DNA of 64,000 bases, from contig DGFH01000301.1 in NCBI GenBank assembly GCA_002391565.1, positions 8,122 through 72,121 of the forward strand. The letters run 5' to 3'. The position numbers and the translations under genes were made by a program. Positions within the stretch are counted from its first letter, which is position 1, and the number at the start of each line of letters is the position of its first letter. This document shows positions 24,644-43,100 of this stretch, piece by piece. The notes under the pieces were generated by a model. That model was given only the letters and a program-made list of their open reading frames with translations, was not told the DNA's origin and made no database searches. The stretch is from Anaerolineales bacterium UBA3905. GTDB taxonomy: Bacteria; Chloroflexota; Anaerolineae; Caldilineales; Caldilineaceae.

Positions 24644-26047
<1,404 letters not shown>

Positions 26048-26223: not shown

Positions 26224-27237
26224 CTACGCGTCGTGCTCCTGTTCGGGCGTTACAACGCGCAACAACACGGCGTCTTCAGTTGCGCTAAGCTGATACTCAC
26301 CCAGTTCGGCAGGGAGCAGCACCCACTGCACGGCTGTGAGTGTTAACGGTGCGGCGTCGGAGGTAAGCATCGCCTCCCCCTGCAACACGGCCCAAATCTC
26401 AAAGGTGGAGCCATCGCACAAGCCGTAGAATTCGTGACCGGCGGGCAGGAAGATGCGTTCCGTCTCGAAATAGGGACAGGTCACCAGACGCTCGATGCGC
26501 ACCCCCTCTTCATCGAGCAGGAGCGTTGGTTTTGTCGGTTCAGGCGCCACCAGGTCGAAGTTGAGCACGTCGAGCGATTTTTCCAGATGCAACGGGCGCG
26601 GGCGACCCCAATCCCAGATGCGATAGGTTGTATCGCTGTTCTGCTGAATCTCGGCAACCATGATGCCCGGTCCCAGCGCGTGAATCGTGCCTGCCGGGAC
26701 GAAGATCACATCTCCCGGCTTGACCGCCACGCGGTGCAGCCCGTCCACGCTGGCATCCGCACCAATGATCGCGGCGTAGCGCTCACGCGTCATGCCGGGC
26801 GCAAAGCCGTAGATCAGCTCGGCGCCCGGCTCGGCGTGCAGCACCACCCACATCTCGGTCTTGCCCAGTTCGCCTTCGTGCGCCATGCCATAGGCGTCGT
26901 CGGGATGCACCTGGATCGAGAGCCAGCGGTTGGCGTCGAGGATTTTGATCAACAGCGGAAACTTGCCCGCCGTCAGCGAAGCCGCGTTGCGTTCGCCGAG
27001 CAGCGCTTCACCCAACAGTTCCTGCACTTCGGGCAGCGTCTTGCCCTTGAGCGGCCCGGTGTTGACCACGCTCGATCCGTTCGGGTGCGCAGCGATCTCC
27101 CAGCTCTCCGCCACGATGCCATCCGGGATCGTGCGCCCCAGTTTTGTCTCCAAATTGCGACCACCCCACGGGTAATCCTTGAAGACCGGGTCAAAGGTCA
27201 GCGGATAGATCATGTCACTGGTTACGCCGTCGCTCAT
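26224..27237 (-). CDS. manA: Mannose-6-phosphate isomerase, type I
   Basis: PWGG, ESWE, FPLLIKILDA, LSIQVHP, GKTEMW, GTIHA, EIQQNSDTTYR; GAGGGA RBS before ATG 27237. Confidence 0.9.
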   Translation of the reverse strand: MSDGVTSDMIYPLTFDPVFKDYPWGGRNLETKLGRTIPDGIVAESWEIAAHPNGSSVVNTGPLKGKTLPEVQELLGEALLGERNAASLTAGKFPLLIKILDANRWLSIQVHPDDAYGMAHEGELGKTEMWVVLHAEPGAELIYGFAPGMTRERYAAIIGADASVDGLHRVAVKPGDVIFVPAGTIHALGPGIMVAEIQQNSDTTYRIWDWGRPRPLHLEKSLDVLNFDLVAPEPTKPTLLLDEEGVRIERLVTCPYFETERIFLPAGHEFYGLCDGSTFEIWAVLQGEAMLTSDAAPLTLTAVQWVLLPAELGEYQLSATEDAVLLRVVTPEQEHDA

Positions 27238-27386: not shown

Positions 27387-29090
27387 TTACTGGAGTGTTG
27401 GATGGCGCAGAAAATCCAGGTCGGCGCCCAGGTTCGCTTGCTGGCAGTGACGCAAATAGAGCGCTTCATAGCCGCGCAATGCTGAGGCGGCTGGCGGTGA
27501 GAATTCCGCACGGCGTCGCGCCAGCTCGGCATCTGATACGCGCAAGGTAAGTTCACGGCGGTCGCTGTTAAGTTCAATCAAATCGCCAGTGCGGACGAGC
27601 GCAAGCGGGCCTCCCACCGCCGCTTCTGGCGCGACATGCAGTACAACAGTGCCAAAGGCCGTGCCACTCATGCGCGCGTCAGAGATGCGCACCATATCGG
27701 TGACGCCAGCAGCCGCCAGCTTCTTGGGGATCGGCAGGTAACCGGCCTCTGGCATCCCCGGCCCACCCAGTGGGCCCGCGTTTTGCAGCACCAGAAAATC
27801 GTCGGGGGTTACGTCCAACTCTGGGCTGTCGATGCGCGCGGCGATGTCCGCCAGGGAAGTGAAGACGACGGCGCGCCCCACCTTGTTGAGCAAGGCAGGC
27901 GTCGCCGCGCCGCGTTTGAGCAGCGCGCCGTCCGGCGCCAGGTTTCCCTTGAGCACGATCAGCCCGCCTTTGGGTTGAAGTGGCGCAGAAGCCGGGTAAA
28001 TCACCTGTTGCCAGGTTGGGAAGGTGTAAGGTTCGTCCAGCAGTTCGCCCAGCGTCTGCCCGGTGACGGTCAACACATCCAGGTGTAAAAGATGCTTGAT
28101 CTCGTTCAGCACGACGCGCATGCCACCGGCGCGGTGGAAATCTTCCATATAACCCGATCCGGTGGGCTTCAAGTCGACCAGCACCGGCGTTGTATCTGCA
28201 ATCTCGTTCAGACGTTGGAGGTCGAGTTTGACGCCCAGGCGCCCGGCGATTGCCGTCAGGTGAATGATGGCATTGGTGGAACCGCCAATCGCCTGCAACA
28301 CGTATAAGGCATTTTCAAACGCGGCGGGCGTCATGATTTTGTCTGGCGTCAAGCCTAGGCGAAGCAACGTCATCGCCTGTTTGCCCGATTCCTCGGCATT
28401 GCGCATACGGTCGGCATAGACGGCGGGAATCGACGCGCCGCCCGGCAGCATCATGCCAAGCGCCTCGACGACGCAGGCCATTGTACTGGCGGTGCCCATG
28501 ACGCTGCAGGTGCCCGGCGTCGGGGCAAGCTGACCCTCCACGGTGTCGATGGCGACCTGGTCGATCTCGTTGCGTCGAAAGCGCGCCCAGAAGCGCCGAC
28601 AATCTGTACACGCACCCAGTCGTTCACCTTGATACTGACTGGTCAGCATCGGCCCGGCTGCAACGACAATGGCGGGCAAGCCAGCGCTGGCCGCCCCCAT
28701 GAGCAGGGCAGGCAGCGTCTTGTCGCAGCCGCCTGTCAACACGACTGCGTCGAGTGGTTGGGCGCGCAGCATCGACTCCACATCCATCGCCATCAAGTTG
28801 CGATAGAGCATACTGGTGGGTGAGAGAAATACTTCACCCAACGAAATGGTGGGAAATTCCAGCGGCAGCCCGCCTGCCTGCCAGACTCCACGTTTGACAG
28901 CATCCACCAACTGCGGAAAGTGGCGATGACAATTGTTGAGTTCGCTGTAGGTGTTGAGAATCCCTACAATCGGCTTGCGCAACGCTTCGCTGCTGAAACC
29001 CATTGCCCGTGCAAATGAACGGCGCAAGTAAAGGGCGAACTCCCGATCTCCGTACTCAGTCAGATTATTGGCCAGGCCGTGCGCGGTCAT
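27387..29090 (-). CDS. IlvD/Edd family dehydratase (sugar-acid dehydratase-like)
   Basis: NNCH, GGCDKT, GTCSVMGTASTM, GGSTNA, SDARMSGT, HVAPEAAVGGP. Confidence 0.9.
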   Translation of the reverse strand: MTAHGLANNLTEYGDREFALYLRRSFARAMGFSSEALRKPIVGILNTYSELNNCHRHFPQLVDAVKRGVWQAGGLPLEFPTISLGEVFLSPTSMLYRNLMAMDVESMLRAQPLDAVVLTGGCDKTLPALLMGAASAGLPAIVVAAGPMLTSQYQGERLGACTDCRRFWARFRRNEIDQVAIDTVEGQLAPTPGTCSVMGTASTMACVVEALGMMLPGGASIPAVYADRMRNAEESGKQAMTLLRLGLTPDKIMTPAAFENALYVLQAIGGSTNAIIHLTAIAGRLGVKLDLQRLNEIADTTPVLVDLKPTGSGYMEDFHRAGGMRVVLNEIKHLLHLDVLTVTGQTLGELLDEPYTFPTWQQVIYPASAPLQPKGGLIVLKGNLAPDGALLKRGAATPALLNKVGRAVVFTSLADIAARIDSPELDVTPDDFLVLQNAGPLGGPGMPEAGYLPIPKKLAAAGVTDMVRISDARMSGTAFGTVVLHVAPEAAVGGPLALVRTGDLIELNSDRRELTLRVSDAELARRRAEFSPPAASALRGYEALYLRHCQQANLGADLDFLRHPTLQ

Positions 29091-29100
29091 GCGTTTTCCG

Positions 29101-30537
29101 TTACCCTTCGATGGCCATGGAAACGAACTTAATTTCCATGTATTCATGCAGACCTTCCTGCGCGCCCTCGCGCCCGAAGCCGCTCTGTTTGACGCCGCCA
29201 AAGGGCGCCTCGGCGGTGGCAGGCGTCATGTCATTGACGCCAATGATGCCAAACTTCAGGCCTTCATAGGCGCGAATCGCCGTCCGCAGGTCGTTGGTGA
29301 GCACATAAGCCGCCAGTCCATAGGGCGTGTTGTTTGCCTGCGCCAATGCCGATGCCATGTCATCGAATGAATTGAGCAGCATCACCGGGCCAAAGGTCTC
29401 TTCCTGCATCACGCGCATCTGCGGCGCCAGATTGGTTAGCAACGTTGGGGCATAGAAGAAACCGCGCGCTCTGCCTGGCGGCGGCGCGCCGCCAGTGAGC
29501 ACCTGCGCTCCCCGCTCAACCGCATCGGCCACAAAATCGGCAATGCGCGTACGCGCGGCGGCAGAGACCAGCGGGCCGGTCGTCACCTGCGGGTCTAACC
29601 CAGGCCCCACCACCAGATTCTCAACAATCGCCCGGCTGGCGGCAATGAAGTCATCTTCGATCGCCCGATGCACATAGAAGCGACTCGGCGAAATGCAGAC
29701 CTGGCCGTTGTTACGGAACTTGGCGGCGACAGCAATTTTGGCGACCGCCTCCACGTCCACGTCGGGAAAGACAAGGACGGGCGCGCTGCCGCCCAGTTCA
29801 AGTGAGAGGCGTTTGATGCCCTCGGCAGCGTTGCGCATGAGCAGCCTGCCAACTGCCTGCGACCCGGTAAAGGAGAGCTTGTCCACCTGCGGCGAACGCA
29901 GGAAGACTTCGCCGATCGGTGCAGGCTGACCGTTGACCAGATTGAGCACACCAGGCGGCATTCCTGCCTCCTCGAGCAGGTTGACCAGCGCCATTGCGCT
30001 CATCGGCGTCAACTCGCTGGGGCGCGCCACAACCGTGCAGCCGGCAGCCAGCGCCCCCGACCATTTGCGCGCAGGCAAGTAGGCCGGGAAATTCCAGGCG
30101 GTAATCGTGGCAACGACGCCAACGGGCATGGGAATGGCAAGCAGCCGCTTGTGGCCGCGGCGGGGCGGAATGGTGCGGCCGTAGGCGCGCTTGCCTTCCT
30201 CGGCAAACCAGTCGAAAAGGTCGGCGCACGCTGTCCACTCGCCGCGCGCCTCGGCCAGGGGCTTGCCACATTCGCGCGTCATGATCGGCGCCAGCTCATC
30301 CAGCCGACTGTAGATCAGATCGGCGACGCGCCGCAGGATGGCGCCGCGTTCGTAGGCGGTCATCGCCGCCCACTTTGGCTGCGCCGCTGCTGCTGCTGCA
30401 ATTGCAGCCTCGGCGTCAGCGGCATCGCCAAAGGGCACGTCCAGAATCGCGGCTTCCGTAGCCGGATCGATCACGGTCCAGGTTGCACCACTCTGGGCGT
30501 CCACCCACCGACCATTGATATATTGTTTGTAGTTCAT
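29101..30537 (-). CDS. NAD(P)-dependent aldehyde dehydrogenase (GabD/SSADH-like)
   Basis: ITAWNFP, SFTGS, LELGG, GQVC, EETFGP, FGGVKQSGFGRE; start may be 30537 or 30558. Confidence 0.92.
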   Translation of the reverse strand: MNYKQYINGRWVDAQSGATWTVIDPATEAAILDVPFGDAADAEAAIAAAAAAQPKWAAMTAYERGAILRRVADLIYSRLDELAPIMTRECGKPLAEARGEWTACADLFDWFAEEGKRAYGRTIPPRRGHKRLLAIPMPVGVVATITAWNFPAYLPARKWSGALAAGCTVVARPSELTPMSAMALVNLLEEAGMPPGVLNLVNGQPAPIGEVFLRSPQVDKLSFTGSQAVGRLLMRNAAEGIKRLSLELGGSAPVLVFPDVDVEAVAKIAVAAKFRNNGQVCISPSRFYVHRAIEDDFIAASRAIVENLVVGPGLDPQVTTGPLVSAAARTRIADFVADAVERGAQVLTGGAPPPGRARGFFYAPTLLTNLAPQMRVMQEETFGPVMLLNSFDDMASALAQANNTPYGLAAYVLTNDLRTAIRAYEGLKFGIIGVNDMTPATAEAPFGGVKQSGFGREGAQEGLHEYMEIKFVSMAIEG

Positions 30538-30591
30538 GACCAGACTCTCTTTTTCCATTGGCAGCACGCGCCAGCTTCAGAAAGATATCGA

Positions 30592-30657
30592 TTTCTAGGT
30601 TGTCACGTGATATTGCTCGCAATCTTCCCGGAAGCTTTGGAGCTTCCGGGAAGATAA
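30592..30657 (-). repeat. REP/MITE-like element, copy 2 (inverted relative to copy 1)
   Basis: Same 15-bp-arm palindrome at 30622-30655; tail reverse-complement matches copy 1 at 28 of 30 nt. Confidence 0.9.
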
Positions 30658-30705
30658 ACAGTTAACCTAGCGGTCAGTAGTATATGCTGTGCAACGTGGC
30701 ATCCA

Positions 30706-32514
30706 CTAGATGACCTCTTCGCTGCGTTCGCGTTCGTAGACGGCGCGCTTGTCGCCCAGATACTCAGGCGCCGGCACATCCCACCAGCCCGGCGCCTGAC
30801 CGCCCGAAGCGCCATGCTGCATGTCGATCATGACCTCCACCACGGCCGGACGGTTTGCCGCCAGCGCCTCGGCAATGGCTTCAGCCACATCGGCGGCGGC
30901 GGTGACGCGGCGGCTGTGGGCGCCAAATGCCGCGGCGATGTCGGCGATGTGCGGCGAAATGGGGTGATCATCTTGCTCGAACATGACGCCATAATTCGCC
31001 TGGTCGCCAAAGACGATCTGCTGTAGATCGCGGATTGCCTGCCAGCCTTGATTGTTGAACACGATGGCAACCACCGGGATATCGTACTGCACGGCGGTGG
31101 CTATCTCTTGAATCGTCATCAGGAAATCACCGTCGCCGACCAGCGCCACGACCGGGGCGTCTGCTCGCGCCAGGCGCGCGCCCAGCGCGGCCGGATAGGC
31201 CCAGCCCATTGTACTGAAACCGCCTGCGGAGATGTAGGTGCGCGGCAGCGTGAACGCCATTTCCTGGAAGACCTGCGCCTGGATATTGCCTGACGACGTG
31301 AAAACAATGGTTTGCGGCGGCAAGACGCGGCGCGCCTCAGCGATCACGCGGCCCATGGTGGGCGGGTTCGCCGTCGAGGTGGCCTGGGCGCGGAAAGTTG
31401 CCTGCCACTGGCTGACAACGTGTGCGATCTCCACTGTGTAGGGACTTGCCTGCCAAGCGCGCGGCGGGGTCAATGCCGCCAATTCCCGTAGCAGGTCGCG
31501 CAGCACAGCGCGTGCATCCCCCACGATGCCGACTGTCGCCGGATAGTTCTTGCCGATCTCGAAGGGATCGATATCGACATGGATCAGTTGCGTTGGAGGG
31601 ATGTTGAAGGCGTAGCCAGGACGGTAAGACGAAGTCGCTTTATCGGCAAAGCGCACACCAACCGCCAGAATGACATCGGCCTGCGTCGTGAGGTGGTTGC
31701 CACAGGTTGTGCCGTTGCTGCCCATATGCCAGCCGTACAGCGGGTGATCTTCCGGGAACGCGCCTTTGCCTTGCATGGTGCTGACCACAGCCGCCCCGAC
31801 ATGCTCGGCGAGCTGACGCACCTCCGCCTCCGCCTGGGCAATTACAACGCCGCCACCGACCAGGATGACGGGACGTTGCGCCTGATTGAGCAGGGCAGCC
31901 GCCTGGACGATCGCCGCTGGATCACCGGTGGGCGCGCCGCGCGGTCGCCGCGTGGTCGGATCGGGCAGATCGTGTAGATCGACCGACTCGGCCTGCACAT
32001 CCATCGGCAGCGTGATGACCGCCGGGCCGGGGCGTCCGGTCAACATGGCGTTGAAGGCCTGGCTCATGGCGCGCGGCAGTTGTCGCGGCTGATCAATGCG
32101 CCAGGCGCGCTTGACGATGGGATCGAATGTGCGCGGGAGATCCGACCAATATTGACGGTCGATCTCCTGCAGGACGCCTACGCCGCGCATGTAGGTGTGC
32201 GTCTCGCCGACGAGCAGCAGCAGGGGAATCGAATCGACGTAGGCGGTCGCCAGTCCGATGGCGGTGTTGGCGGCGCCTGCCCCGATCGACGTGTAGACGG
32301 CTAACGGACGACCGCAGGCGCGGAAGTAGCCATCCGCCATGTGCACGGCCGCCTGTTCGTGGCGCGGCATGATGACCTTGATCGCTTCCTGGCGACGGCG
32401 CAGTGCATCCACCAGCGGCAGATTGCCATGACCAGGAATGCCGATCGCAAATGGCACGCCTTCCCGCACCAACATTTCCACGACAATTTCCGATCCATTC
32501 AGGCGTAGTGACAT
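30706..32514 (-). CDS. ThDP-dependent enzyme (acetolactate synthase/IolD-like superfamily)
   Basis: GIPGHGN, RHEQAA, SIGAGAAN, ThDP motif GDGDF...IVFNN. Confidence 0.88.
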   Translation of the reverse strand: MSLRLNGSEIVVEMLVREGVPFAIGIPGHGNLPLVDALRRRQEAIKVIMPRHEQAAVHMADGYFRACGRPLAVYTSIGAGAANTAIGLATAYVDSIPLLLLVGETHTYMRGVGVLQEIDRQYWSDLPRTFDPIVKRAWRIDQPRQLPRAMSQAFNAMLTGRPGPAVITLPMDVQAESVDLHDLPDPTTRRPRGAPTGDPAAIVQAAALLNQAQRPVILVGGGVVIAQAEAEVRQLAEHVGAAVVSTMQGKGAFPEDHPLYGWHMGSNGTTCGNHLTTQADVILAVGVRFADKATSSYRPGYAFNIPPTQLIHVDIDPFEIGKNYPATVGIVGDARAVLRDLLRELAALTPPRAWQASPYTVEIAHVVSQWQATFRAQATSTANPPTMGRVIAEARRVLPPQTIVFTSSGNIQAQVFQEMAFTLPRTYISAGGFSTMGWAYPAALGARLARADAPVVALVGDGDFLMTIQEIATAVQYDIPVVAIVFNNQGWQAIRDLQQIVFGDQANYGVMFEQDDHPISPHIADIAAAFGAHSRRVTAAADVAEAIAEALAANRPAVVEVMIDMQHGASGGQAPGWWDVPAPEYLGDKRAVYERERSEEVI

Positions 32515-32517
32515 GGT

Positions 32518-33588
32518 TCAGCCTTTCGCAAGCGTGACAGCCTGTCCCAGCCGCGCCGACTCCTGCGCGGCCAGGGCAAAGCGCAGCACCTCCCGCCCTT
32601 GCTCGCCGGTCAAGGACGGGGCGGCGCCGGCAAAATAGGCGTCGATCATGTGGCGCGTCGAGTTGATGAAACTGTGTTCCCAACCCACCGGCATATCAGA
32701 GAAGGTGCGCGTTTGCCGGTCTCGGTAGAGCACCACCGGCGGTGCGTCGAGCATCTTGCCATGGCCGCGCGTCACCCAGATGACGCCCTTGGCGCCGGTG
32801 ATTTCGATGCGGTCGTCCTGGGCGTAGTGCTGCGTATCGAGCACCAACTCAGGCGAGTAGACCACCTCCAGCGCGCCGACGCCGCCATTAGCAAACTTCC
32901 ATGAGATGATGGAAGGTGAGTCCAGGATTGCCCCAGGAAAGACTTCCGTGGCGCCGATCCAGGCGTGCACAGCTTCCGCCTGCCCCATAAAATGCCAGGC
33001 CAAGGCAAACTTATGATGGCCGTCATCGAAGACCAGCGGGCCGCCGCCATTCTGCGCAGGATCAAAGCGCCAGATTTGGGCGGCAAGGGGCACCTGCCAG
33101 GCGTTGGGGCTGGTGGCGGCGTTGCTCTTGATGCGAATCGAAAGCGGTTCGCCAATCTCGCCGGCGTCGACCAGCGCCTTGGCGCGCTGCACGGGCGGAT
33201 AAAAAATGAAATTCTCGAAGACTTTGAACATCACCCCTGCGCGTTGAGTGGCTGCGATCATGGCGTCGGCCTGTTCCACACTCAACGCCATCGGTTTTTG
33301 CACCGAGACGTGTTTCCCTGCCTGCGCAGCATCCAGGACAGCCTGGTAATGCAGATGATGGGGCAGCAGAATTTCCACCAGGTCGACCTCAGGCAGCGCC
33401 AGCAAGTCATGGTAGTTGGTGAAAATAGCATGCGCAGGCACGCCCCACGCACGCCCGCGCGTTTGCGCATTTTCTGCAACCATATCCGCCACGGCCACAA
33501 TCTCGGCGCGTGGGTTGGCAAGATATTCGAGCGCGTGCAGGTCGGAAATGCGACCGGCGCCAATGATTCCGACACGTAGTTTTTCCAT
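32518..33588 (-). CDS. Gfo/Idh/MocA family oxidoreductase
   Basis: IIGAGRIS, LLPHHLH, AGKHVSVQKP, DDGHH. Confidence 0.9.
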   Translation of the reverse strand: MEKLRVGIIGAGRISDLHALEYLANPRAEIVAVADMVAENAQTRGRAWGVPAHAIFTNYHDLLALPEVDLVEILLPHHLHYQAVLDAAQAGKHVSVQKPMALSVEQADAMIAATQRAGVMFKVFENFIFYPPVQRAKALVDAGEIGEPLSIRIKSNAATSPNAWQVPLAAQIWRFDPAQNGGGPLVFDDGHHKFALAWHFMGQAEAVHAWIGATEVFPGAILDSPSIISWKFANGGVGALEVVYSPELVLDTQHYAQDDRIEITGAKGVIWVTRGHGKMLDAPPVVLYRDRQTRTFSDMPVGWEHSFINSTRHMIDAYFAGAAPSLTGEQGREVLRFALAAQESARLGQAVTLAKG

Positions 33589-33632
33589 GTTACAACCTCA
33601 ACGTTTGGTTAGATTACCTTGATTGATGGGTT

Positions 33633-34502
33633 TCATCCCTTCACCGATCCCAGCGTCAAACCGCGAATGAAGTAACGCTGGAAGAAGATGAAGACCAGAA
33701 GCGTGGGAATGCTGGCAATGATCGCCATGGCGCCCTGGACGCCGTACGCCACGCTATACTGCCCTTTGAGCGACGCCAGCCCGACCATGATCGTGCGCAT
33801 CTCGTCCGACTGTGTGAAGATGATCGGCCAGAGGAAGTCGTTCCAAATCCACGTGAACTGCAGCGTAGCCAATACGGCGATCGCTGGCAGGCTCACCGGC
33901 AGCATCACGCGCACCAACACCTGCCATTCGTTGGCGCCATCGATGATGGCTGCCTCACGGATAGCATTGGGCACAGCTGCAAAGAAGTTGCGCATCACCA
34001 GAGTGCAGATCGGAATGCCAAAGGCGGCGTGCACGATGATCATCGGCCAGAGGGTGTCATACAGATGTACGGCATTGAAGAGGCGAAAGAGCGGGATCAA
34101 CACGATTTGTGGGGGATAAAACATGCCCGCAACGACAAAGATAAACAGCGCCTCAGAGCCGCGAAAGCGGAGCTTGCTGAAGACATAGCCGGTCAGGATG
34201 CCTAACAGGATCGAAACAAAGGTGGCTGGGATGGTCACCAGGAACGAGTTGCGCGCATAGACGACCACATTGCCGCCCACCCACGCCTCGGTGAAGTTTG
34301 TGAACCGCAGCGCATCTGGCAACGCCCACAGCCCATCGCGCGCAATCTCCTCAGTGCTCTTGAACGAGGTCAAGACGACGCCGATCACCGGCAGCGAATA
34401 GAGCACGACAAGCGCTGTCAGCACCCCGTAGAAGAGGATGCTGCCAGCCTCCTTGCGTGATTTGGCGGCGACGCCTGTTTGGGTCAAGGTCACATCAGTC
34501 AT
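33633..34502 (-). CDS. Carbohydrate ABC transporter permease (MalG-type)
   Basis: EAAIIDGA loop, WNDFLWP; ATG at 34502 overlaps the upstream stop. Confidence 0.9.
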   Translation of the reverse strand: MTDVTLTQTGVAAKSRKEAGSILFYGVLTALVVLYSLPVIGVVLTSFKSTEEIARDGLWALPDALRFTNFTEAWVGGNVVVYARNSFLVTIPATFVSILLGILTGYVFSKLRFRGSEALFIFVVAGMFYPPQIVLIPLFRLFNAVHLYDTLWPMIIVHAAFGIPICTLVMRNFFAAVPNAIREAAIIDGANEWQVLVRVMLPVSLPAIAVLATLQFTWIWNDFLWPIIFTQSDEMRTIMVGLASLKGQYSVAYGVQGAMAIIASIPTLLVFIFFQRYFIRGLTLGSVKG

Positions 34503-35376
34503 AGAGCCGATCCAGCGCCTGCACCTGGCGGAAGTAGAAGACAATGATCACCAGCGAAATCGCAAAGAGCACGACGGCGATTGCACTGCCATACCCCATG
34601 TAATACTTCTTGAACGATTCCGTGTACATGAACATTGCCAGTGTGTCCGATGAGTGGAAGGGGCCGCCTTGCGTCATCACATAGACGATATCGAAGCTCT
34701 TGAGCGAGTTGATAATCGCAAGCGCCATCACAACCACCGTCGCCGGCAGCAAGAGTGGAATCACGACGTGACGCAGCCCCTGCCAGTAGGTGGCGCCGTC
34801 GATTTCGGCGGCTTCAGTCAATTCTTTGGGCACGGAAGTCAACCCGGCAAGAAAAATGACCATGGCAAGGCCGGTCTGCTGCCAGGCCCACGCCACGATC
34901 ACCGCCAGCAGTGCTGTCTGGGGATCGGCCAACCAGGCGCGCGTCCAGTCTGGTGCGCCGAGGCCTTCCAGGGTCACGTTGATCAGCCCCCAATCTGGGT
35001 GATACATCCAGATCCAGACCTGGCCGATCACGACCAGCGACAGACAGATCGGCAGGTAGAAAAGCGACTTGTAGAGGTTGCCGGCCACGCCGCGACCATT
35101 CAGCGCCAGGGCAATCGCCAGCCCACCCAGCGATGGCAACAAAATCGCCGCCGCCATCCAGATGACCGTGTTGCGGATTGCATTGGCAAACAGTGGGTCG
35201 CGCCCAATTTTGAGGAAATTGTCCAGCCCGACGAAGTTATAGTTTGGATTAAAGCCGTTCCAATCGGTCAGGCTATAGTAGAAAGAGACCAGCAACGGCG
35301 CCACAACGATCACTGTGTAGAGCGCCAGTGGTGGTGTGAGAAAGAGCGCTGCCCAGAGTGTACGCGACCGAGCCAC
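34495..35376 (-). CDS. Carbohydrate ABC transporter permease (MalF-type)
   Basis: FVGLDNF, EAAEIDGA, SLKSFDIV; CAGGAGG RBS before GTG 35376. Confidence 0.9.
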   Translation of the reverse strand: MARSRTLWAALFLTPPLALYTVIVVAPLLVSFYYSLTDWNGFNPNYNFVGLDNFLKIGRDPLFANAIRNTVIWMAAAILLPSLGGLAIALALNGRGVAGNLYKSLFYLPICLSLVVIGQVWIWMYHPDWGLINVTLEGLGAPDWTRAWLADPQTALLAVIVAWAWQQTGLAMVIFLAGLTSVPKELTEAAEIDGATYWQGLRHVVIPLLLPATVVVMALAIINSLKSFDIVYVMTQGGPFHSSDTLAMFMYTESFKKYYMGYGSAIAVVLFAISLVIIVFYFRQVQALDRLYD

Positions 35377-35503
35377 GTCCAATCCTCCTGCAAACCATCT
35401 GAGTTGGTGGCGACTACCATAGAGCATAGCCGCCACCGGTGTACGAATGAGCTACAAGCAGTCTTGAGGAGACGCCTGCCGCCGGCAGCTTACTGCGCGT
35501 CTG

Positions 35504-36807
35504 CTACTTGCCAAAGACTTCCTTCGCCACATTCTCGGTTTCAGCCAGATAGTCGGAGTATCGGGACGGGTCATTCATGAACTGCGCAAACATGTTTAGC
35601 CCGCCCTCAGCCATTGGCGGCGTCGTCGCCAGATCATAATTGAAGGCAAAGACCTCGGCGTTCGCCACCTGCTCGTTGGCCTTGCTCATCACCACATTGT
35701 AAATGCCGGGATCAACCTTCATGCTCGGTGCAAGCGCGCCTTGCGCCTGGGCCCAGTCAGCCTGCACCTGTGGGTCAAGCAGATAAAGCAAAAGTTTTTC
35801 CGTTTCGGGTTTATGCTTGGATGCGGCGGTCATCACAAAACCATCAACCGGGCCGAGCGCTGCGTTGGGCACCCCCTCTTGCATGGCCGGGAAGGGGAAG
35901 AAGTCATAATCCTCGCCTGGGGTCAGTTGTTGCCGTTCCAGTAGCCGGTAATCCAGGTGCCCATGAGCGTCATTGCCGCCTGGCCATTGGCGACCTGATC
36001 GGCGGCGTCGGTCCAATCATAGGCATTGGCATTCGCGACAAAGTAACCGGCGTCCGCCAGGCTCTTCCAAAGTTCCATCGCCGTCATCACCTCAGGGTCA
36101 GTGTAGGTCGCCTCGCCAGCCATCAATTTAGCGCGGTATTCGGGGCCTGCCGTGCGCAGGAGCAAATAATCGAACCAAAATTGCGCCGGCCAGCGATTCT
36201 TGGAGCCAAGCGCAAAGGGTGTGACGCCCGCGGCTTTGAGCTGCTCGGCGACTGCCAACATCTCATCCCAGGTCTCAGGCATCTTCGTAACGCCGGCTGC
36301 AGCCATGACCTTTGGATTGTAGAACATGCCTACATAGTGATAGCCGATAGGAATCAAATACTTGTTGCCATTGTAGGTCGATGCGCCTGCCGCAATGCCA
36401 GCGGGGATGACTTCGTCCAGGTTGTTGGCGGCCCACATCTCATCGATCGGCGCCAGGCGTCCGCCGTCAACCACAAACTGCGTGCGTGCGCCCGCCCAGT
36501 AGGAAAAAGCATCGGGCGGATTGTCACCTGCCAGAGTGACAAGAATCTGCGTCTTGAAATCTTCGTGGCCAGCCGAGTTATCGATGGCTTCGATGCCGGG
36601 GTTAGCGGCATTGAAGCCGTTAAGAATTTTGGACATGGCCTCCTTGCCCAACGTGTCGCTGAAATAGTGGATCACGCTGAGCTTGGTCACGCCGGCGTTG
36701 GCGTCACCGGCGCTGCCGGCTGGGCTGGCAGGCACAGTCGTACACCCAGCAAGCAGCGCAGCGACAACCAAAAGCAACGGCATTGCTTTCCCAATTGACC
36801 TGAACAT
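35504..36807 (-). pseudogene. Sugar ABC substrate-binding lipoprotein split by a 1-nt frameshift near 35926
   Basis: Lipobox LAGC; N-part stops at YWNGNN* (35923); C-part LTPGEDYDFFPFP...EVFGK continues in another frame; one added C restores the ORF. Confidence 0.8.
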
Positions 36808-36853
36808 AGATCTCCTCCATTGTGATAAAATAGGAAGAAACGGAACGAAAGAA

Positions 36854-36873
36854 ATGTGGTTACGTTTTCACAT
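36854..36873. promoter_or_regulatory. Putative LacI-family operator
   Basis: ATGTGGTTACGTTTTCACAT: central CG, right half CGTTTTCA matches LacI-family TGnAAnCGnTTnCA; just downstream of the operon -10. Confidence 0.65.
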
Positions 36874-36882
36874 CGCCGCCAC

Positions 36883-36911
36883 ATCATAGCGAAATTCACA
36901 GGCAAAGTCAA
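36883..36911 (-). promoter_or_regulatory. Sigma70-type promoter of the sugar operon
   Basis: TTGACT-17 nt-TATGAT on the minus strand. Confidence 0.75.
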
Positions 36912-36931
36912 GCATTATTTCGCATATAATC

Positions 36932-36960
36932 TTGAATAACCGGAAAAATTCAGCTAGAAT
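36932..36960 (+). promoter_or_regulatory. Sigma70-type promoter of the LacI regulator
   Basis: TTGAAT-17 nt-TAGAAT. Confidence 0.7.
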
Positions 36961-37033
36961 CAATATGAAAATTTTGATTTATTTTTTCACATTAAATCAT
37001 CCTGGATGACAATGAGACGAGGCTGACAAGGCA

Positions 37034-38065
37034 ATGCGACGCAAACAGGAAGTCACTATAGTGGATGTTGCAATGGCGGCAGGGTTATCCCCGAGCACAG
37101 TTTCACGCGTGCTCAATCAAAAGGGCTACTACAGCGCCGAGAATGAGCAGAAAGTGAGACATGCCGTCGAGTCACTCGGGTATCGTCCGAGTTGGAGTGC
37201 GCGTTCGCTCAAAGGGGCGCCCACGCGCGTCGTTGGCTTGATCATTCCCGATATTTCGAATGTCTTCTATACGACGTTGGCGGGCGCGCTGCTGGCGAGG
37301 ATGCGCGTCCTGGACTACGATATGATCCTGTGCGTCAACGACGAAAACGCCCAACTTGACTTGAACTACCTGGAAATGCTGCAACAAAAAGGGGTGGATG
37401 GCATCTTCTACACTCACCCGGCGCATGGCAATAACTCTGTCCACGTTCGCCGTCTGGTCGCAGAAGGGCTGCCCATTGTGGAATTAAATCGCCAGCGTGA
37501 GAAGAATTTTCTGGATGCAGTGTTGCCTGACAACTTTCGCGGTGTGCACCAGGCCGTCGAATATCTCGCCAGTTTGGGACATCGGCGCATTGGCTTCATC
37601 AGCGGTTCCGCGGAGATCACCACCGGTCATGAAAGGTTGCTTGGTTATCAGAGCGCTGTGCGGCTGCTAGGACTCGACGACGATCCGGCGCTACTCAAAA
37701 TTGGCGCTTTCACGCGCCAACACGGTGAACAGGCAACGGCAGAACTGCTGGCCCTGCCCAATCGCCCGACAGCGCTGATTGCGGGCAGCAATCGCATCTC
37801 CATGGGCGCCCTTATGGTCATGGGACAGGCGGCAATTCGCATCCCTGACGACATGTCGGTAATCGGCTACAACGACACCGAATGGTTGACTGCCTGGAAT
37901 CCACCGATCACAGCGGTTGATATTGCTGTAGATGAAATGGCGCAGCTTGCTGTAGACTTGCTGCATCGCCGCGTCAGTGGCGGCAACGGCGGCGACGGCA
38001 AGCCTGTCACTTACCACCTGAGTACATCGCTCATTATTCGTCAGTCGTGCCGGAAGATCGGGTGA
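37034..38065 (+). CDS. LacI family transcriptional regulator
   Basis: TIVDVAMAAGLSPSTVSRVLN HTH, hinge ARSLK, periplasmic-binding-fold effector domain. Confidence 0.95.
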   Translation: MRRKQEVTIVDVAMAAGLSPSTVSRVLNQKGYYSAENEQKVRHAVESLGYRPSWSARSLKGAPTRVVGLIIPDISNVFYTTLAGALLARMRVLDYDMILCVNDENAQLDLNYLEMLQQKGVDGIFYTHPAHGNNSVHVRRLVAEGLPIVELNRQREKNFLDAVLPDNFRGVHQAVEYLASLGHRRIGFISGSAEITTGHERLLGYQSAVRLLGLDDDPALLKIGAFTRQHGEQATAELLALPNRPTALIAGSNRISMGALMVMGQAAIRIPDDMSVIGYNDTEWLTAWNPPITAVDIAVDEMAQLAVDLLHRRVSGGNGGDGKPVTYHLSTSLIIRQSCRKIG

Positions 38066-38238: not shown

Positions 38239-39753
<1,515 letters not shown>

Positions 39754-40137
39754 GTGGACACCTCTTCGTCGTCCATTCGATGGTGATTCATTGCCGCAGC
39801 CTTGGAGCAAGGCGGATTCGATGGCTGTCATCTTATCGCAGGCGGATGCTGATAGCAAAGCCCCATCCCTTTCCGGGCGTCGTTCCTGTTCAGCGCAACT
39901 TACATCCATAGCAACATTGCTCCACCAATTTATCTAACCTTTTCTGGAAGAAACCACTGTCACATGGTGCTACCATCGTAAGCTGGCATCGATGTTCAAC
40001 GCCACGGGATGACCCAGACGCAACATTCATCTTGATTCGGTTTTGATTTCGGTTTGATGAGCGTTCAAGCTGACTTGCATACCATCATGACAACGAATGT
40101 TTTCATCTTCACTTCTTCTGCTCATGGAGAAATGTCT

Positions 40138-43100
40138 ATGCAATCGAATACAGCAACCAGACGGAAATTCACAGGGCTGAGTATCCTCACGCTGCTGGTG
40201 ATGCTGACCGCAGCGACGATAGCGCCAGCCACGACTCAGGCGCAAGGCGGCGCTCCGGTGCTGGCGTTGTCGCATAGCGTCAGCCAGGAGCCATTGCTTA
40301 GCGGGCAAGTGGCCTTCACGTTAAACGTGCGCAACAACGGCGCCGTCGCTGTGACCGATCGCGGCTACAACCTGACCATCACCGACACCTTGCCCGTTGG
40401 CCTCACCTATGTCAGCGCCGATCCGGCGCCCACCAACGTCACCCGCCAGGCGGACGGCGCAACCGCGTTGACGTGGGATAACATCGCCGACCTGGAGGCC
40501 GGCGAAAGCCTGAGCATCAACATAATCGCTTCCCTGGCGAACACGGTGACGGTCGCCAACGACATGGTGAACCGCGCTGGCGCCAAAGTGAACACGATGC
40601 CCGACAACAGCGGCGCCTGGGTGACAGCCTTCAGCGAGTTGTCCACGCGCCCACAGGCGATCGACATCGAAGCCAGCATTCTGCAATCCACCGCCGACGA
40701 ACAGGCGACGGGCGCCGGTGAATATGCTACGGCGCCAGGTCAGAAAGCTGGCGCGGATTGGCCCTTCCAGGTGCGGGTCACTGTACGTAATAACAATGTG
40801 GGCGCAACCAGCAACGTCGTCGCGCGCGTCACGCTGCCAGCAGGTCTGGCTTATCTGGGCAATGTCACAATCAGCCCGAACCCGAACAGTGTCTCAACCA
40901 CACCGACGCTGACGCGCAAACCGGGCGGTGCGCTGGAGCTAAGCTGGGCGCTGGGCAACCTCACGACCGCACAATACGCCACCCCGCTTGTGATCACCTT
41001 CCAAACTGCCATTCCTTACCGCTATCGCAGCAACGCAGATACTGCAGCGGGCGCCGGCCCCTATGCCGGGCCAATGAGTGGCGAGATCATCCCGGAAGAT
41101 GCAGTAATGGCGGTGCTCTATGAAGCCAGTGGCGCCTACGCCAACGCTCCGACGGCGGATGGCTCAGAATCGACGCCAGACGACGACCCGCCTGCGCAGA
41201 CGACCGCCGAGATCATGACGGTGGACAAGAACGCCTCACCCACCACCGTCGGCATCGGCACGGAAGTCACCTTCTCACTCACCTACTACGTCTCCGAGTA
41301 CTACACCGTCACCAATGCCTCGCTGGTGGATGTCCTGCCCGATGGGATGATTTACGTCGATGGCAGCGCCAACCTGACGCCGGTCAGCGTGACGCCGGGC
41401 TTGCCGGGCGCCGGTCAGACCACCATCGTCTGGGCGCTGCCCGCCGAAGCAACGACGCCGGGCGCCAGCGCCGCCGTCACCTTCCGTGCACTGGTCGACA
41501 CCACCTACGAGGCGGCGCCGCTCACCGGTCAACCCATCGTCTCCGGCGACAGCCTGACCAACCGCGTCACCCTCAGCGGCGACTGGGCGGATGCAGTGAC
41601 AGCGGAGCGGCTGGGCGCGTTGACGCCCGATGTCGCTTCCGCCACGGTCAACACACGCATGCCGGGCTTCAATAAGGAGGTCTTCAACCCGTTGACGCAG
41701 CAATGGGGGAGCAGCGTCGACGCCTATGTCGGCGACACCGTGACCTTCCGCCTGACCTACGCCAGCGCCGCCGACATCGACGCCAGGAACATCATCATCC
41801 GCGACTTCCTGCCGCGCGGCATGACCTACATCGACGGCAGCGCCACGCACACCGTCAACGGGACATTCAGCAACGGAAGCAGCTGCACTGCCGCGCCACA
41901 GTCGCCCACAGTGGGCACGCTGGGCGGGCTGCAATATCTGGAGTGGCGGTTGTGCAACGCTGCGCGCGGCGCCACCTGGGAGGCGCAAATTCAGGCGCGC
42001 GTTGGGCCGGAGCCGAACGTACAACCAGGCTGGATCGTCGCCAACTTTGGCAAGCTGAGCGGCGCCAACAGTTACGGCGAGAATTACAGCCTGCGCGCAA
42101 TGGCGATCACCAACTACAAAGCGCCGCGCCTGGTGCTGACCAAAAGCGCCACGCCCAGCAGCAACCTGCAGGCCGGCAGCGTCATCAACTACAGCATTTC
42201 GGTGCTCAACGTTGGAGAAGCCACCGCCTACAATTTGAGTGTAATCGACACCGTGCCAGCGTCGCTGATCATCCCCAACAGCGGCGGCTCCGGGGCGCCC
42301 AACGCTGCCACTTACACAGCCACCGCAGGCGACCCGGCCTCGGGTGCGGGCGGCGTGCTCATCTGGACGACGGTCGGTGCGCTGGCGCCGGGACAGACGC
42401 AGACCTTCACCTACCAGGCAACGGTGGCGGCAGGCTTGCCCGCCGGCGCAGCGCTCAACAACTTGGCGAGTGTGGCGTACAACAGCCGCAGCGATAACCA
42501 GGGACACGCCGTCACCCACAGCAGCAATGTCGATGATGACCAGACCGACGACATCACGGTCTACATCAAGAACCTGACGATTACCAAGACCGGCGCCCGC
42601 GTTGGTGGCGAGGGTGCGGCGGAACAGGTCACCATCGGCGACACCATGCGCTGGACGCTGACCGTCACCGTGCCTACCGGCGTCATCGCCTACTGGCCTG
42701 TCGTCGAGGAAAATGACCTGCCGCCAGGCTTCAACTACGTCGCCGGCAGCCGCGCCATTGCAGGCGCCAGCTTCGACGACGCGCATCACACCGCCAACCC
42801 CAAGATCAGCACGAACCCGACCGACCTGCGCTTTTATCTGAACACGGTCGACAATACGGCGGGGTCAACCCCTTACGTCTTCACGCTGACCTTCGACGCC
42901 ATCGTCACCGGTGTGCGCGCCGACCAGCCGACGACGATTTACTACACCAACAACACGGTGCTCAACGACGCCCTCAACACGACCTACATCGGCTGGTATG
43001 ACTCGATCAACGGCTACAATGGCAGCGGCTACGCCTACGACGCCGGCTTCGAGACCAACCGCATCGATCGCCGCAGCCCGCGTGGACGCTTCACCGCCAA

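Follow-up and report, generated by a model that had tools for sequence, protein, structure and literature searches.

A predicted sugar-type operon built around an IolD-related thiamine diphosphate enzyme in an uncultured Chloroflexota bacterium, most likely for kinase-free and aldolase-free catabolism

The operon described here lies in a stretch of 64,000 nucleotides, referred to below as the window (contig DGFH01000301.1, positions 8,122 to 72,121), from an uncultured Chloroflexota bacterium, Anaerolineales bacterium UBA3905, whose metagenome-assembled genome (MAG) of 5.86 Mb in 391 contigs is 92.6% complete; its nearest relatives bear the names Chloroflexia, Caldilineaceae and Anaerolineae. 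Open reading frames (ORFs) and Pfam domains place on the minus strand, in this order, genes for a substrate-binding protein (SBP) and two permeases of an ATP-binding cassette (ABC) transporter, a Gfo/Idh/MocA dehydrogenase (Gfo), a thiamine diphosphate (ThDP)-dependent enzyme, an aldehyde dehydrogenase (ALDH) and an IlvD/Edd dehydratase (IlvD); a LacI-family regulator gene runs divergently on the plus strand. This is the gene content and order that an earlier note, made from the sequence alone, had read from the same stretch. The genes form a real operon, predicted to be repressor-controlled, most likely for the kinase-free and aldolase-free breakdown of a sugar-like compound, that is, for a non-phosphorylative catabolism of a sugar or sugar acid built around an uncharacterised ThDP family.

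Among the window ORFs compared with Pfam and NCBIfam models, no kinase, aldolase, lactonase or second dehydratase was found in or beside the operon, in agreement with the earlier note, which had recorded the absence of a sugar kinase, a 2-keto-3-deoxy-gluconate (KDG) aldolase and a second dehydratase there. Its conclusion that neither the Weimberg nor the Dahms route fits also holds, given that neither the Weimberg pair of 2-keto-3-deoxy-pentonate (KDP) dehydratase and KGSADH nor the KDP aldolase of the Dahms route is encoded in the operon or in the loci of the same type (route A, see below). The suggestion that the pathway could be undescribed agrees with full-text literature searches, in which no paper describing it was found. 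The reading that we favour, tentatively and as something short of probable, is an oxidation by the Gfo enzyme, a C-C cleavage by the ThDP enzyme to a carboxylated dihydroxy-aldehyde, and the conversion of this aldehyde to a dicarboxylate and then to a 2-oxo-dicarboxylate.

The ThDP-dependent enzyme

Judged by its sequence, the ThDP enzyme is a member of an uncharacterised family that is sister to IolD, and not IolD itself. It stays below every NCBIfam cut-off (bits/cut-off: acetolactate synthase (ALS), TIGR00118, 432/538; IolD, TIGR04377, 337/715; Gcl, NF008431, 318/791; Xsc, TIGR03457, 304/676). Clustering with a characterised IolD, Gcl or Xsc had been named in the earlier note as evidence that would speak against a new pathway; what was found is an enzyme below all three cut-offs, in a genome that encodes its true IolD elsewhere. 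The GHGN motif, correctly noted before as shared with IolD, stands at residues 28-31, and alignment reveals a G-I-x-G-H-G loop in 33/33 members of the family and 11/11 IolD sequences, as opposed to 0/13 ALS sequences. A C-terminal WWDVxVP tail is likewise common to the family and IolD and is gapped in 12 of the 13 ALS sequences. Where IolD has RNEQ, the family keeps the ALS-type RHEQ; the catalytic Glu of this motif is retained in the window enzyme, in contrast to Gcl. In a maximum-likelihood tree of ALS, IolD and the new families only, with Gcl, CDH and Xsc references left out and with a long IolD branch, the family groups with IolD against ALS (support 99/96). A search of the Protein Data Bank for an IolD structure with which to compare active sites gave none at E<1e-60.

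Members of the family are 47-82% identical to the window enzyme, and the next-best matches are ALS proteins at no more than 37% identity. The family is rare: of the GTDB species representatives searched, 16 carry it, and of the 172 genera sampled in the phylum, 9 do. Its relatives carry no public names other than 'thiamine pyrophosphate-binding protein' or 'acetolactate synthase'.

Two known identities were considered for the enzyme and rejected. Biosynthetic ALS is contradicted by the score (431.7 bits, below 538), by a GHG loop in place of GG(A/V/S), by the lack of a small-subunit gene and by the catabolic context; a separate ALS-like gene of the source genome is located on another contig (C231). 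An identity as Gcl or Xsc is contradicted by scores of 318.4 bits (below 791) and 303.6 bits (below 676), respectively.

More divergent members, with 43-47% identity, occur in two complete genomes of the same phylum (L178/L179:9028-14518). Their neighbours are a gene with a xylose isomerase fold, short unannotated ORFs, of which, judged only by eye, one resembles creatininase and another PhyH, and an ORF of 1031 amino acids; there is no Gfo gene. The arrangement looks like a further context for the ThDP clade.

Aldehyde dehydrogenase, dehydratase and Gfo dehydrogenase

The ALDH of the operon resembles succinate semialdehyde dehydrogenase (SSADH). It reaches 516.9 bits with the SSADH model TIGR01780, below the cut-off of 646, and 260 bits with the methylmalonate semialdehyde dehydrogenase (MMSDH) model; its nearest solved structures are SSADHs and the malic semialdehyde dehydrogenase of A. 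baumannii (8of1). In an alignment that included 3jz4 and 8of1, the catalytic Cys and Glu and an Arg/Arg/Ser triad are kept in 12/12 route A orthologues, within the conserved motifs ARK, FRNxGQVC (with the Arg six residues before the catalytic Cys), KQSG and ELGG. The carboxylate-binding residues of human SSADH are R213, R334 and S498, the same role has been assigned by docking or prediction to R166, R284 and S447 of the A. baumannii enzyme, and the equivalent triad of RlGabD has been proposed, also by docking or prediction, to bind a sulfonate (PMC11353897; bioRxiv 10.1101/2023.03.13.532361). Because this carboxylate-binding triad is conserved in the operon's enzyme, its substrate is probably an anionic aldehyde and not the neutral 3,4-dihydroxybutanal or a 2-deoxy-aldose.

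The IlvD protein passes the NCBIfam model of the sugar-acid dehydratase subfamily (NF004784; 822.5 bits, cut-off 539) and falls below the L-arabinonate dehydratase equivalog (699 vs 882). Among solved structures it is nearest to 8ej0 and to those of L-arabinonate dehydratase (9evv/5j84). A second IlvD, encoded elsewhere in the source genome and 37% identical to that of the operon, presumably has the biosynthetic role. The Gfo protein shows only a distant relationship (E about 1e-21) to IolG, DgpA and levoglucosan dehydrogenase; its best NCBIfam match, IolG, lies far below the cut-off.

Related loci and sister clusters

The neighbourhoods of 38 loci that carry the ThDP family were compared. The Gfo gene adjoins the ThDP gene in about 26 of them and is found within three genes of it in at least 30. 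An SSADH-like ALDH and IlvD follow downstream in 13 of the 38 loci including the window, and in three more (L193, L196, L198); this arrangement is called route A. At least 13 Chloroflexota loci, whose proteins are 67-83% identical, repeat the gene order of the operon and leave only short gaps between the genes. In the arrangement called route B, the Gfo-ThDP core is followed by a split transketolase, an isomerase with an RpiB fold and an IolA-type MMSDH; the isomerase matches DhuI, the streptococcal 4-deoxy-L-threo-5-hexosulose-uronate isomerase (4u8e, E 1.6e-46), and an IlvD gene or a gene with a xylose isomerase fold is sometimes added. In the tree, routes A and B correspond to two closely related sister subclades of the ThDP family. 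The source genome encodes a single split transketolase, a homologue with 44% identity that is located on a different contig, and no DhuI-like, BKACE (beta-keto acid cleavage enzyme) or RraA-like gene was found in this genome, of which the MAG covers 92.6%.

The composition of the clusters varies around the core. IlvD is missing from many of them. A minimal cluster (L087) holds an ABC transporter, an IclR regulator, Gfo and the ThDP enzyme only, and one locus (L001) has the ThDP-ALDH-IlvD trio beside a transporter of the MFS type and without Gfo. The genomes of L013 and L004 possess the Gfo-ThDP pair, and their sole IlvD homologue, 38-41% identical, is probably the biosynthetic enzyme. Some divergent relatives (L100, L102, L178/L179) carry a gene with the IolE fold, a xylose isomerase-like TIM barrel, next to the ThDP gene. 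In one route A locus (L089:14958-18813), four genes are inserted between IlvD and the orthologous SBP gene. They encode an M24/creatinase-fold protein, a second Gfo, a BKACE and a short-chain dehydrogenase/reductase (SDR), and this insert may be a branch that consumes a 3-hydroxy-acid intermediate.

A longer IlvD/Edd paralogue of about 665-713 amino acids (longest ORFs) is encoded beside the IlvD of the pathway in part of the route A loci and also in a genome of the Trueperaceae (L003:12446-14587 on the minus strand, L009, and L191:8360-10357 on the minus strand). The L191 copy is 63% identical to the Chloroflexota copies.

Alphaproteobacterial counterparts

A search with the IlvD protein led to analogous, syntenic clusters in Alphaproteobacteria, whose carriers include Ciceribacter sp. 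T2.26MG-112.2, a Rhizobium MAG, Rhodovulum euryhalinum DSM 4868 and Alkalilacustris brevis. One layout comprises an SBP (63% identical to the Chloroflexota SBP), an IclR regulator, Gfo (60%), a ThDP enzyme of another family (ThDP'), ALDH (46-49%) and IlvD (64%). The other consists of TctABC, ThDP', in part of the cases ALDH, and IlvD; it has no Gfo, and TctABC is sometimes accompanied by a molybdenum hydroxylase-type dehydrogenase. The identity of ThDP' with the window enzyme is no higher than 27-31%. Of the hidden Markov models (HMMs), it matches that of IolD best, at 155-184 bits, and its sequence contains RNE, the GHG loop and a tail of the related form W-N-V. Since the rest of the cluster is orthologous and ThDP' is another IolD-like family, an equivalent and interchangeable IolD-like chemistry is suggested for the ThDP step. 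In the Gfo-less TctABC clusters an acid taken up from outside seems to reach the ThDP enzyme directly, which indicates that such an acid can be the entry point of the ThDP-ALDH-IlvD trio.

A tentative pathway and its rivals

In the pathway that we tentatively favour, the CUT1 ABC importer would take up a sugar-like compound and the LacI protein would repress the operon. The Gfo enzyme would oxidise the imported compound and so make a carbonyl substrate for the ThDP enzyme, which in turn would break one C-C bond and leave an aldehyde that retains a carboxylate and a 2,3-diol. This cleavage could proceed by hydrolysis, as in IolD, with a vicinal dicarbonyl or an alpha-ketol as substrate, or by loss of CO2 from a 2-oxo acid. 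In the iol pathway of B. subtilis, the IolD product 5-deoxyglucuronate is itself a carboxylated aldehyde with a 2,3-diol beside the aldehyde. The SSADH-type ALDH would then convert the aldehyde into a 2,3-dihydroxy-dicarboxylate, and the IlvD/Edd dehydratase would turn this into a 2-oxo-3-deoxy-dicarboxylate. The chain length would set the product, with 2-oxoglutarate from a C5 and oxaloacetate from a C4 compound. Longer chains would yield a 4-hydroxy-2-oxo-diacid and need a pyruvate aldolase encoded elsewhere; such a product is suggested for three loci by the RraA-like class II pyruvate aldolase after or near IlvD, which would fit it in those genomes.

The order Gfo, ThDP, ALDH, IlvD is favoured because Gfo and ThDP form an invariant, translationally coupled pair, in the window with 3 nucleotides between the Gfo stop codon and the ThDP start (10 nucleotides separate the ALDH stop from the IlvD start), because a lactonase is present in none of the loci compared, and because Gfo-less trios with acid transporters exist. 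A direct passage from Gfo to the ThDP enzyme, with no dehydratase between them, is further suggested by the L013 and L004 genomes, since these are devoid of a dedicated IlvD orthologue.

Several points weigh against this reading. Its substrate, product and step order are predictions, for all members of the family, from enzyme families, synteny, the IolD-like motifs and the ALDH residues that bind an anion. The score of the ThDP enzyme is higher with ALS (432) than with IolD (337), and the enzyme keeps the ALS-type RHEQ, and its grouping with IolD comes from a tree that joins long branches and leaves out the Gcl, CDH and Xsc references. The nearest solved relatives of the SBP, though distant, bind neutral monosaccharides. 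IlvD could act before the ThDP enzyme, and the BKACE and SDR genes of L089 would fit a 2-deoxy-aldonate product. The A and B subclades are separate, so that what the transketolase clusters imply may not hold for the window. Finally, we can name no widespread natural compound from which one oxidation by Gfo would produce a suitable IolD-type substrate. Parts of the evidence would be met by 4-deoxy-5-keto-uronate or -glucarate, 5-ketogluconate, hexuronates, aldarates and oxidised cyclitols as candidate substrates; scyllo-inosose and 2-keto-aldonates are further candidates, inseparable from the others by sequence. From 5-ketogluconate, for example, the pathway would lead over tartrate semialdehyde and tartrate to oxaloacetate.

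A rival explanation places the dehydratase first, with Gfo as a sugar 1-dehydrogenase, IlvD forming a 2-keto-3-deoxy acid, the ThDP enzyme as a decarboxylase and the ALDH acting on the resulting semialdehyde. We consider it conceivable, if rather doubtful. All four families have precedent in these roles, the IlvD is closest to aldonate dehydratases, and the ThDP enzyme beside an SSADH-like ALDH mirrors the cyanobacterial pair of 2-oxoglutarate decarboxylase and SSADH. An SBP nearest to binders of neutral monosaccharides would suit it, the Gfo-less TctABC clusters could import an aldarate or aldonate directly, and L089 has additional SDR and BKACE genes, like the known deoxyribonate route. It is difficult to reconcile with the clusters that have no IlvD, above all in the L013 and L004 genomes with their 38-41% homologue, with a coupled invariant pair that is Gfo and ThDP and not Gfo and IlvD, and with the lack of a lactonase in all loci; the IolD-like motifs are unexpected in a plain decarboxylase, yet compatible with one. 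The most coherent form of this explanation is a serious rival. A uronate would be converted via an aldarate to a 5-keto-4-deoxy-aldarate and, with loss of CO2, to 2,3-dihydroxy-5-oxopentanoate, from which 2,3-dihydroxyglutarate and, by a second IlvD step, 2-oxoglutarate would arise. This aldarate form satisfies the anion-binding triad of the ALDH and has a central metabolite as its end point; IlvD would have to act twice, the clusters that lack IlvD would call for an explanation, and we know of no aldarate dehydratase in the IlvD family. The form that starts from a neutral aldose and ends in a 2-deoxy-aldonate or 3,4-dihydroxybutyrate is the weakest, as it conflicts with the conserved carboxylate triad and would leave a dead-end deoxy-acid here, no BKACE having been detected in the 92.6% complete MAG. 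The sequence aldose, aldonate, 2-keto-3-deoxy acid and decarboxylation, as put forward in the earlier note, has thus lost ground in its neutral form, through the Gfo-ThDP core, the IlvD-less clusters, the Gfo-less trios beside acid-type transporters, the missing lactonase and the ALDH triad, and survives in its uronate/aldarate form.

A variant myo-inositol pathway, with Gfo as IolG, the ThDP enzyme as a divergent IolD acting on 3D-(3,5/4)-trihydroxycyclohexane-1,2-dione and an IolA-like ALDH, would account for the GHG loop and the WWDV tail, for IolG as the best NCBIfam match of Gfo and for the IolE-fold neighbour genes in L100, L102 and L178/L179. It is nevertheless very improbable. The same genome has a canonical myo-inositol cluster apart from the operon, on contig C291 (L170:266-18237), with a LacI regulator, a transaldolase-fold protein, IolB, IolC, IolD, IolA/MMSDH, its own CUT2 ABC transporter and a further Gfo. 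The IolD encoded there scores 904.8 bits (cut-off 715) and the window enzyme 337, and the ALDH of the operon is SSADH-like (517 bits vs 260 for MMSDH). The operon is without an IolE-type dehydratase, IolB, IolC and IolJ. Given the cluster on C291, the window operon therefore serves another substrate. Canonical IolD is ruled out by the HMM score and this complete cluster, and the plain ring cleavage of a cyclitol-dione, the other possibility raised in the earlier note, is not supported, for want of an IolE-type dehydratase in the operon and because the canonical iol genes are located elsewhere in the genome. Still more improbable is an assembly of chance neighbours or the remnant of a decaying locus without a single pathway. 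The frameshifted SBP of the window assembly and an operon without ABC ATPase would agree with it; against it, at least 13 loci with 67-83% identical proteins show the same closely spaced genes in the same order, the SBP is intact in two other assemblies (L084, L085), all catalytic motifs are intact, and CUT1 systems often rely on a shared ATPase from elsewhere. Sulfoquinovose breakdown by a sulfo-Entner-Doudoroff or sulfo-transketolase (sulfo-TK) route was also considered, on account of the GabD-like ALDH, the IlvD/Edd dehydratase and the Xsc-like ThDP enzyme, and rejected with the Xsc score of 304 vs 676; no sulfoquinovosidase, sulfite exporter or sulfonate genes were found in any locus compared.

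Two extensions of the favoured Gfo-ThDP-ALDH-IlvD order can be formulated. A single ThDP product for routes A and B could be 3,4-dihydroxy-5-oxopentanoate, which is kept only as one candidate. It would give 2-oxoglutarate via ALDH and IlvD, and malonate semialdehyde and xylulose-5-phosphate via isomerase and transketolase. Against it stand the separate ThDP subclades of the A and B loci, and no natural precursor leading to it through a single Gfo step was found. In a broader view, which we regard as speculative and rather unlikely as a whole, IolD would be one branch of a wider, unrecognised ThDP clade that opens or shortens sugar or sugar-acid skeletons together with Gfo and has two interchangeable ATP-independent endings. 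Besides IolD, this clade would comprise at least three families: that of the window, the divergent 43-47% family and the alphaproteobacterial ThDP'. One ending, that of the window, would lead through ALDH and IlvD to a 2-oxo-dicarboxylate of the tricarboxylic acid (TCA) cycle such as 2-oxoglutarate; the other, in the sister clusters, would lead through a DhuI-like isomerase, a dedicated transketolase and MMSDH to xylulose-5-phosphate and acetyl-CoA. If true, a new family of kinase-free and aldolase-free routes of carbohydrate catabolism would span Chloroflexota, Bacillota, Deinococcota and Alphaproteobacteria.

Transport and regulation

The SBP gene is frameshifted in the window assembly, where a CC pair at about 35926/35927 is short of one C, as revealed by alignment to two further assemblies of the source organism (L084, L085). 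In both, the SBP ORF is intact with 434 amino acids and the ThDP protein is 100% identical, so the view that the SBP needs repair was right and a single base suffices. The nearest solved structures of the intact orthologue, all distant, are AcbH and the glucose/galactose-binding proteins of Thermus. No ABC ATPase gene was found in or beside the operon within the window; a shared ATPase elsewhere in the genome was not searched for. CUT1 systems often use a shared ATPase encoded elsewhere. Across the loci of the ThDP family, the transporters are of the CUT1, CUT2-like, GPH, MFS and TTT types.

The LacI orthologue keeps its divergent position in L002, L003, L009 and L084/L085. In the intergenic region, the best sigma-70-type match is TTGACT-17-TATGAT, with 10/12 positions, and a TTGAC..TATGAT/TATTAT arrangement recurs 5' of orthologous SBP genes; promoter and terminator scans of the region returned other promoter matches and terminators at background level only. 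Directly 3' of the -10 element of this sole good match lies the pseudo-palindrome TGTGGTTACGTTTTCACA, and L084/L085 as well as the orthologous locus L002 (79% identical) carry an identical 18-mer at the corresponding place. The repressor domains and the conserved operator-like site downstream of the -10 element lend indirect support to the LacI control asserted in the earlier note, with binding at this site as a prediction.

A second inverted repeat near the lacI start (window 36948-37007) consists of TGTGAAAA, a spacer of about 17 nucleotides and TTTTCA. It is kept in L003 and L009, both of which are without the 18-bp operator-like site, and its position and conservation suggest that it may be an autoregulatory site. 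The IclR regulators of the sister clusters are KdgR-like and below the cut-off.

Features and neighbouring genes of the operon

The features of the operon are collected in Table 1.

Table 1. Coordinates of the operon, its regulator gene and the putative control elements in the window
Feature	Position	Strand	Basis
LacI-family repressor	37034..38065	+	Pfam LacI HTH (helix-turn-helix) plus Peripla_BP_3/1
Promoter-like site TTGACT, 17 nt spacer, TATGAT	36883..36911	-	consensus match only
Putative LacI-type operator-like pseudo-palindrome TGTGGTTACGTTTTCACA, 18 bp	36855..36872	not set	function inferred
CUT1 SBP gene, frameshifted here	35504..36807	-	two overlapping ORFs matching SBP_bac_1
ABC permease 1	34495..35376	-	BPD_transp_1 (Pfam); start set by the 293-aa gene call in L084
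ABC permease 2	33633..34502	-	BPD_transp_1 (Pfam); L084 gene call of 289 aa
Gfo/Idh/MocA NAD(P)-dependent dehydrogenase	32518..33588	-	Pfam GFO_IDH_MocA N- and C-terminal domains
ThDP-dependent enzyme, IolD-sister family	30706..32514	-	three TPP_enzyme domains
SSADH/GabD-like ALDH	29101..30537	-	Aldedh domain
IlvD/Edd-family sugar-acid dehydratase	27387..29090	-	both ILVD_EDD domains, N and C

On the same strand, 149 nucleotides 3' of IlvD, a gene for a cupin resembling type I phosphomannose isomerase (PMI) follows (26224-27237, minus strand), adjoined by a gene for a eukaryote-type UTP-glucose-1-phosphate uridylyltransferase (UGPase; 24644-26047, plus strand). The PMI-like gene stands after IlvD only in the source organism (L084/L085) and not in the other route A loci; it is probably outside the pathway, although KduI and IolB are cupin isomerases too. 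Beyond lacI, a second ALDH gene (38239-39909, minus strand) passes the model of L-piperidine-6-carboxylate dehydrogenase (772 vs 730 bits), and by this match is assigned to lysine catabolism, with no relation to the operon. It is followed by an ORF of about 2100 amino acids (40054-46401, plus strand), probably a giant surface protein to judge from its L084 counterpart with CLIPPER, FG-GAP and beta-propeller domains.

Significance and comparison with known systems

What the window adds is the ending with ALDH and IlvD, which also provides the connection to Alphaproteobacteria that can be cultured. The analogous cluster in cultured Ciceribacter, Rhodovulum euryhalinum and Alkalilacustris brevis makes the route testable by genetics and growth assays. 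If the favoured order Gfo, ThDP, ALDH, IlvD holds, the reaction type of the ThDP enzyme, or at least its substrate class, would be new beside IolD. The operon would then encode a new way, independent of ATP, to turn a carbohydrate into a central 2-oxo acid. This would close a gap in the annotation of pathways, and the operon would represent a natural counterpart of the engineered cascades of dehydratase, decarboxylase and ALDH that make hydroxy acids.

The front half of the myo-inositol pathway (IolG, IolE and IolD of B. subtilis) resembles the operon in that a Gfo gene stands beside a ThDP gene with GHG loop and WWDV tail, and IolD makes a carboxylated aldehyde of the kind that the ALDH and IlvD of the operon would accept. 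It differs in that the operon and the route A loci are without IolE, IolB, IolC, IolJ and IolA, and in that the downstream steps of the operon would be an oxidation and a dehydration in place of an isomerase, a kinase and an aldolase. The sulfo-TK pathway (SqwGH, SqwI, SqwD) is comparable to route B, with which it has in common a split transketolase, an isomerase of a non-phosphate sugar and an acylating ALDH. Sulfite, sulfonate and sulfoquinovosidase genes were not seen in the loci compared, and the terminal ALDH of route B is an MMSDH of the IolA type; these sulfo-TK-like genes are absent from the window, and the DhuI-like gene from the source genome as well. The cyanobacterial bypass of the TCA cycle also combines a ThDP enzyme of the ALS superfamily with an SSADH-type ALDH and an aldehyde with a distal carboxylate, whereas the operon has in addition a sugar transporter, Gfo and IlvD, and a ThDP enzyme with IolD-type motifs.

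With the Weimberg, Dahms and uronate-aldarate-KdgD-KGSADH (alpha-ketoglutarate semialdehyde dehydrogenase) routes, the last of which runs over 5-keto-4-deoxyglucarate and 2-oxoglutarate semialdehyde, the operon shares a sugar dehydrogenase, an IlvD/Edd dehydratase, an ALDH5/KGSADH-like enzyme, the absence of a kinase and probably a 2-oxo-dicarboxylate as end point. Unlike these non-phosphorylative oxidative routes, it has no second dehydratase of the KdxD/KdgD kind, no KDG-type aldolase and no lactonase, and it puts a ThDP enzyme at the centre, a position in which, to our knowledge, such an enzyme occurs in no described natural variant of them. The same four enzyme classes have been brought together in engineered routes from xylose, by way of xylonate, 2-keto-3-deoxy-xylonate and 3,4-dihydroxybutanal, to 3,4-dihydroxybutyrate or 1,2,4-butanetriol. 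The engineered routes employ promiscuous decarboxylases of the MdlC/KdcA type and a neutral aldehyde, whereas the ALDH of the operon keeps its carboxylate triad and IlvD is dispensable in related clusters.

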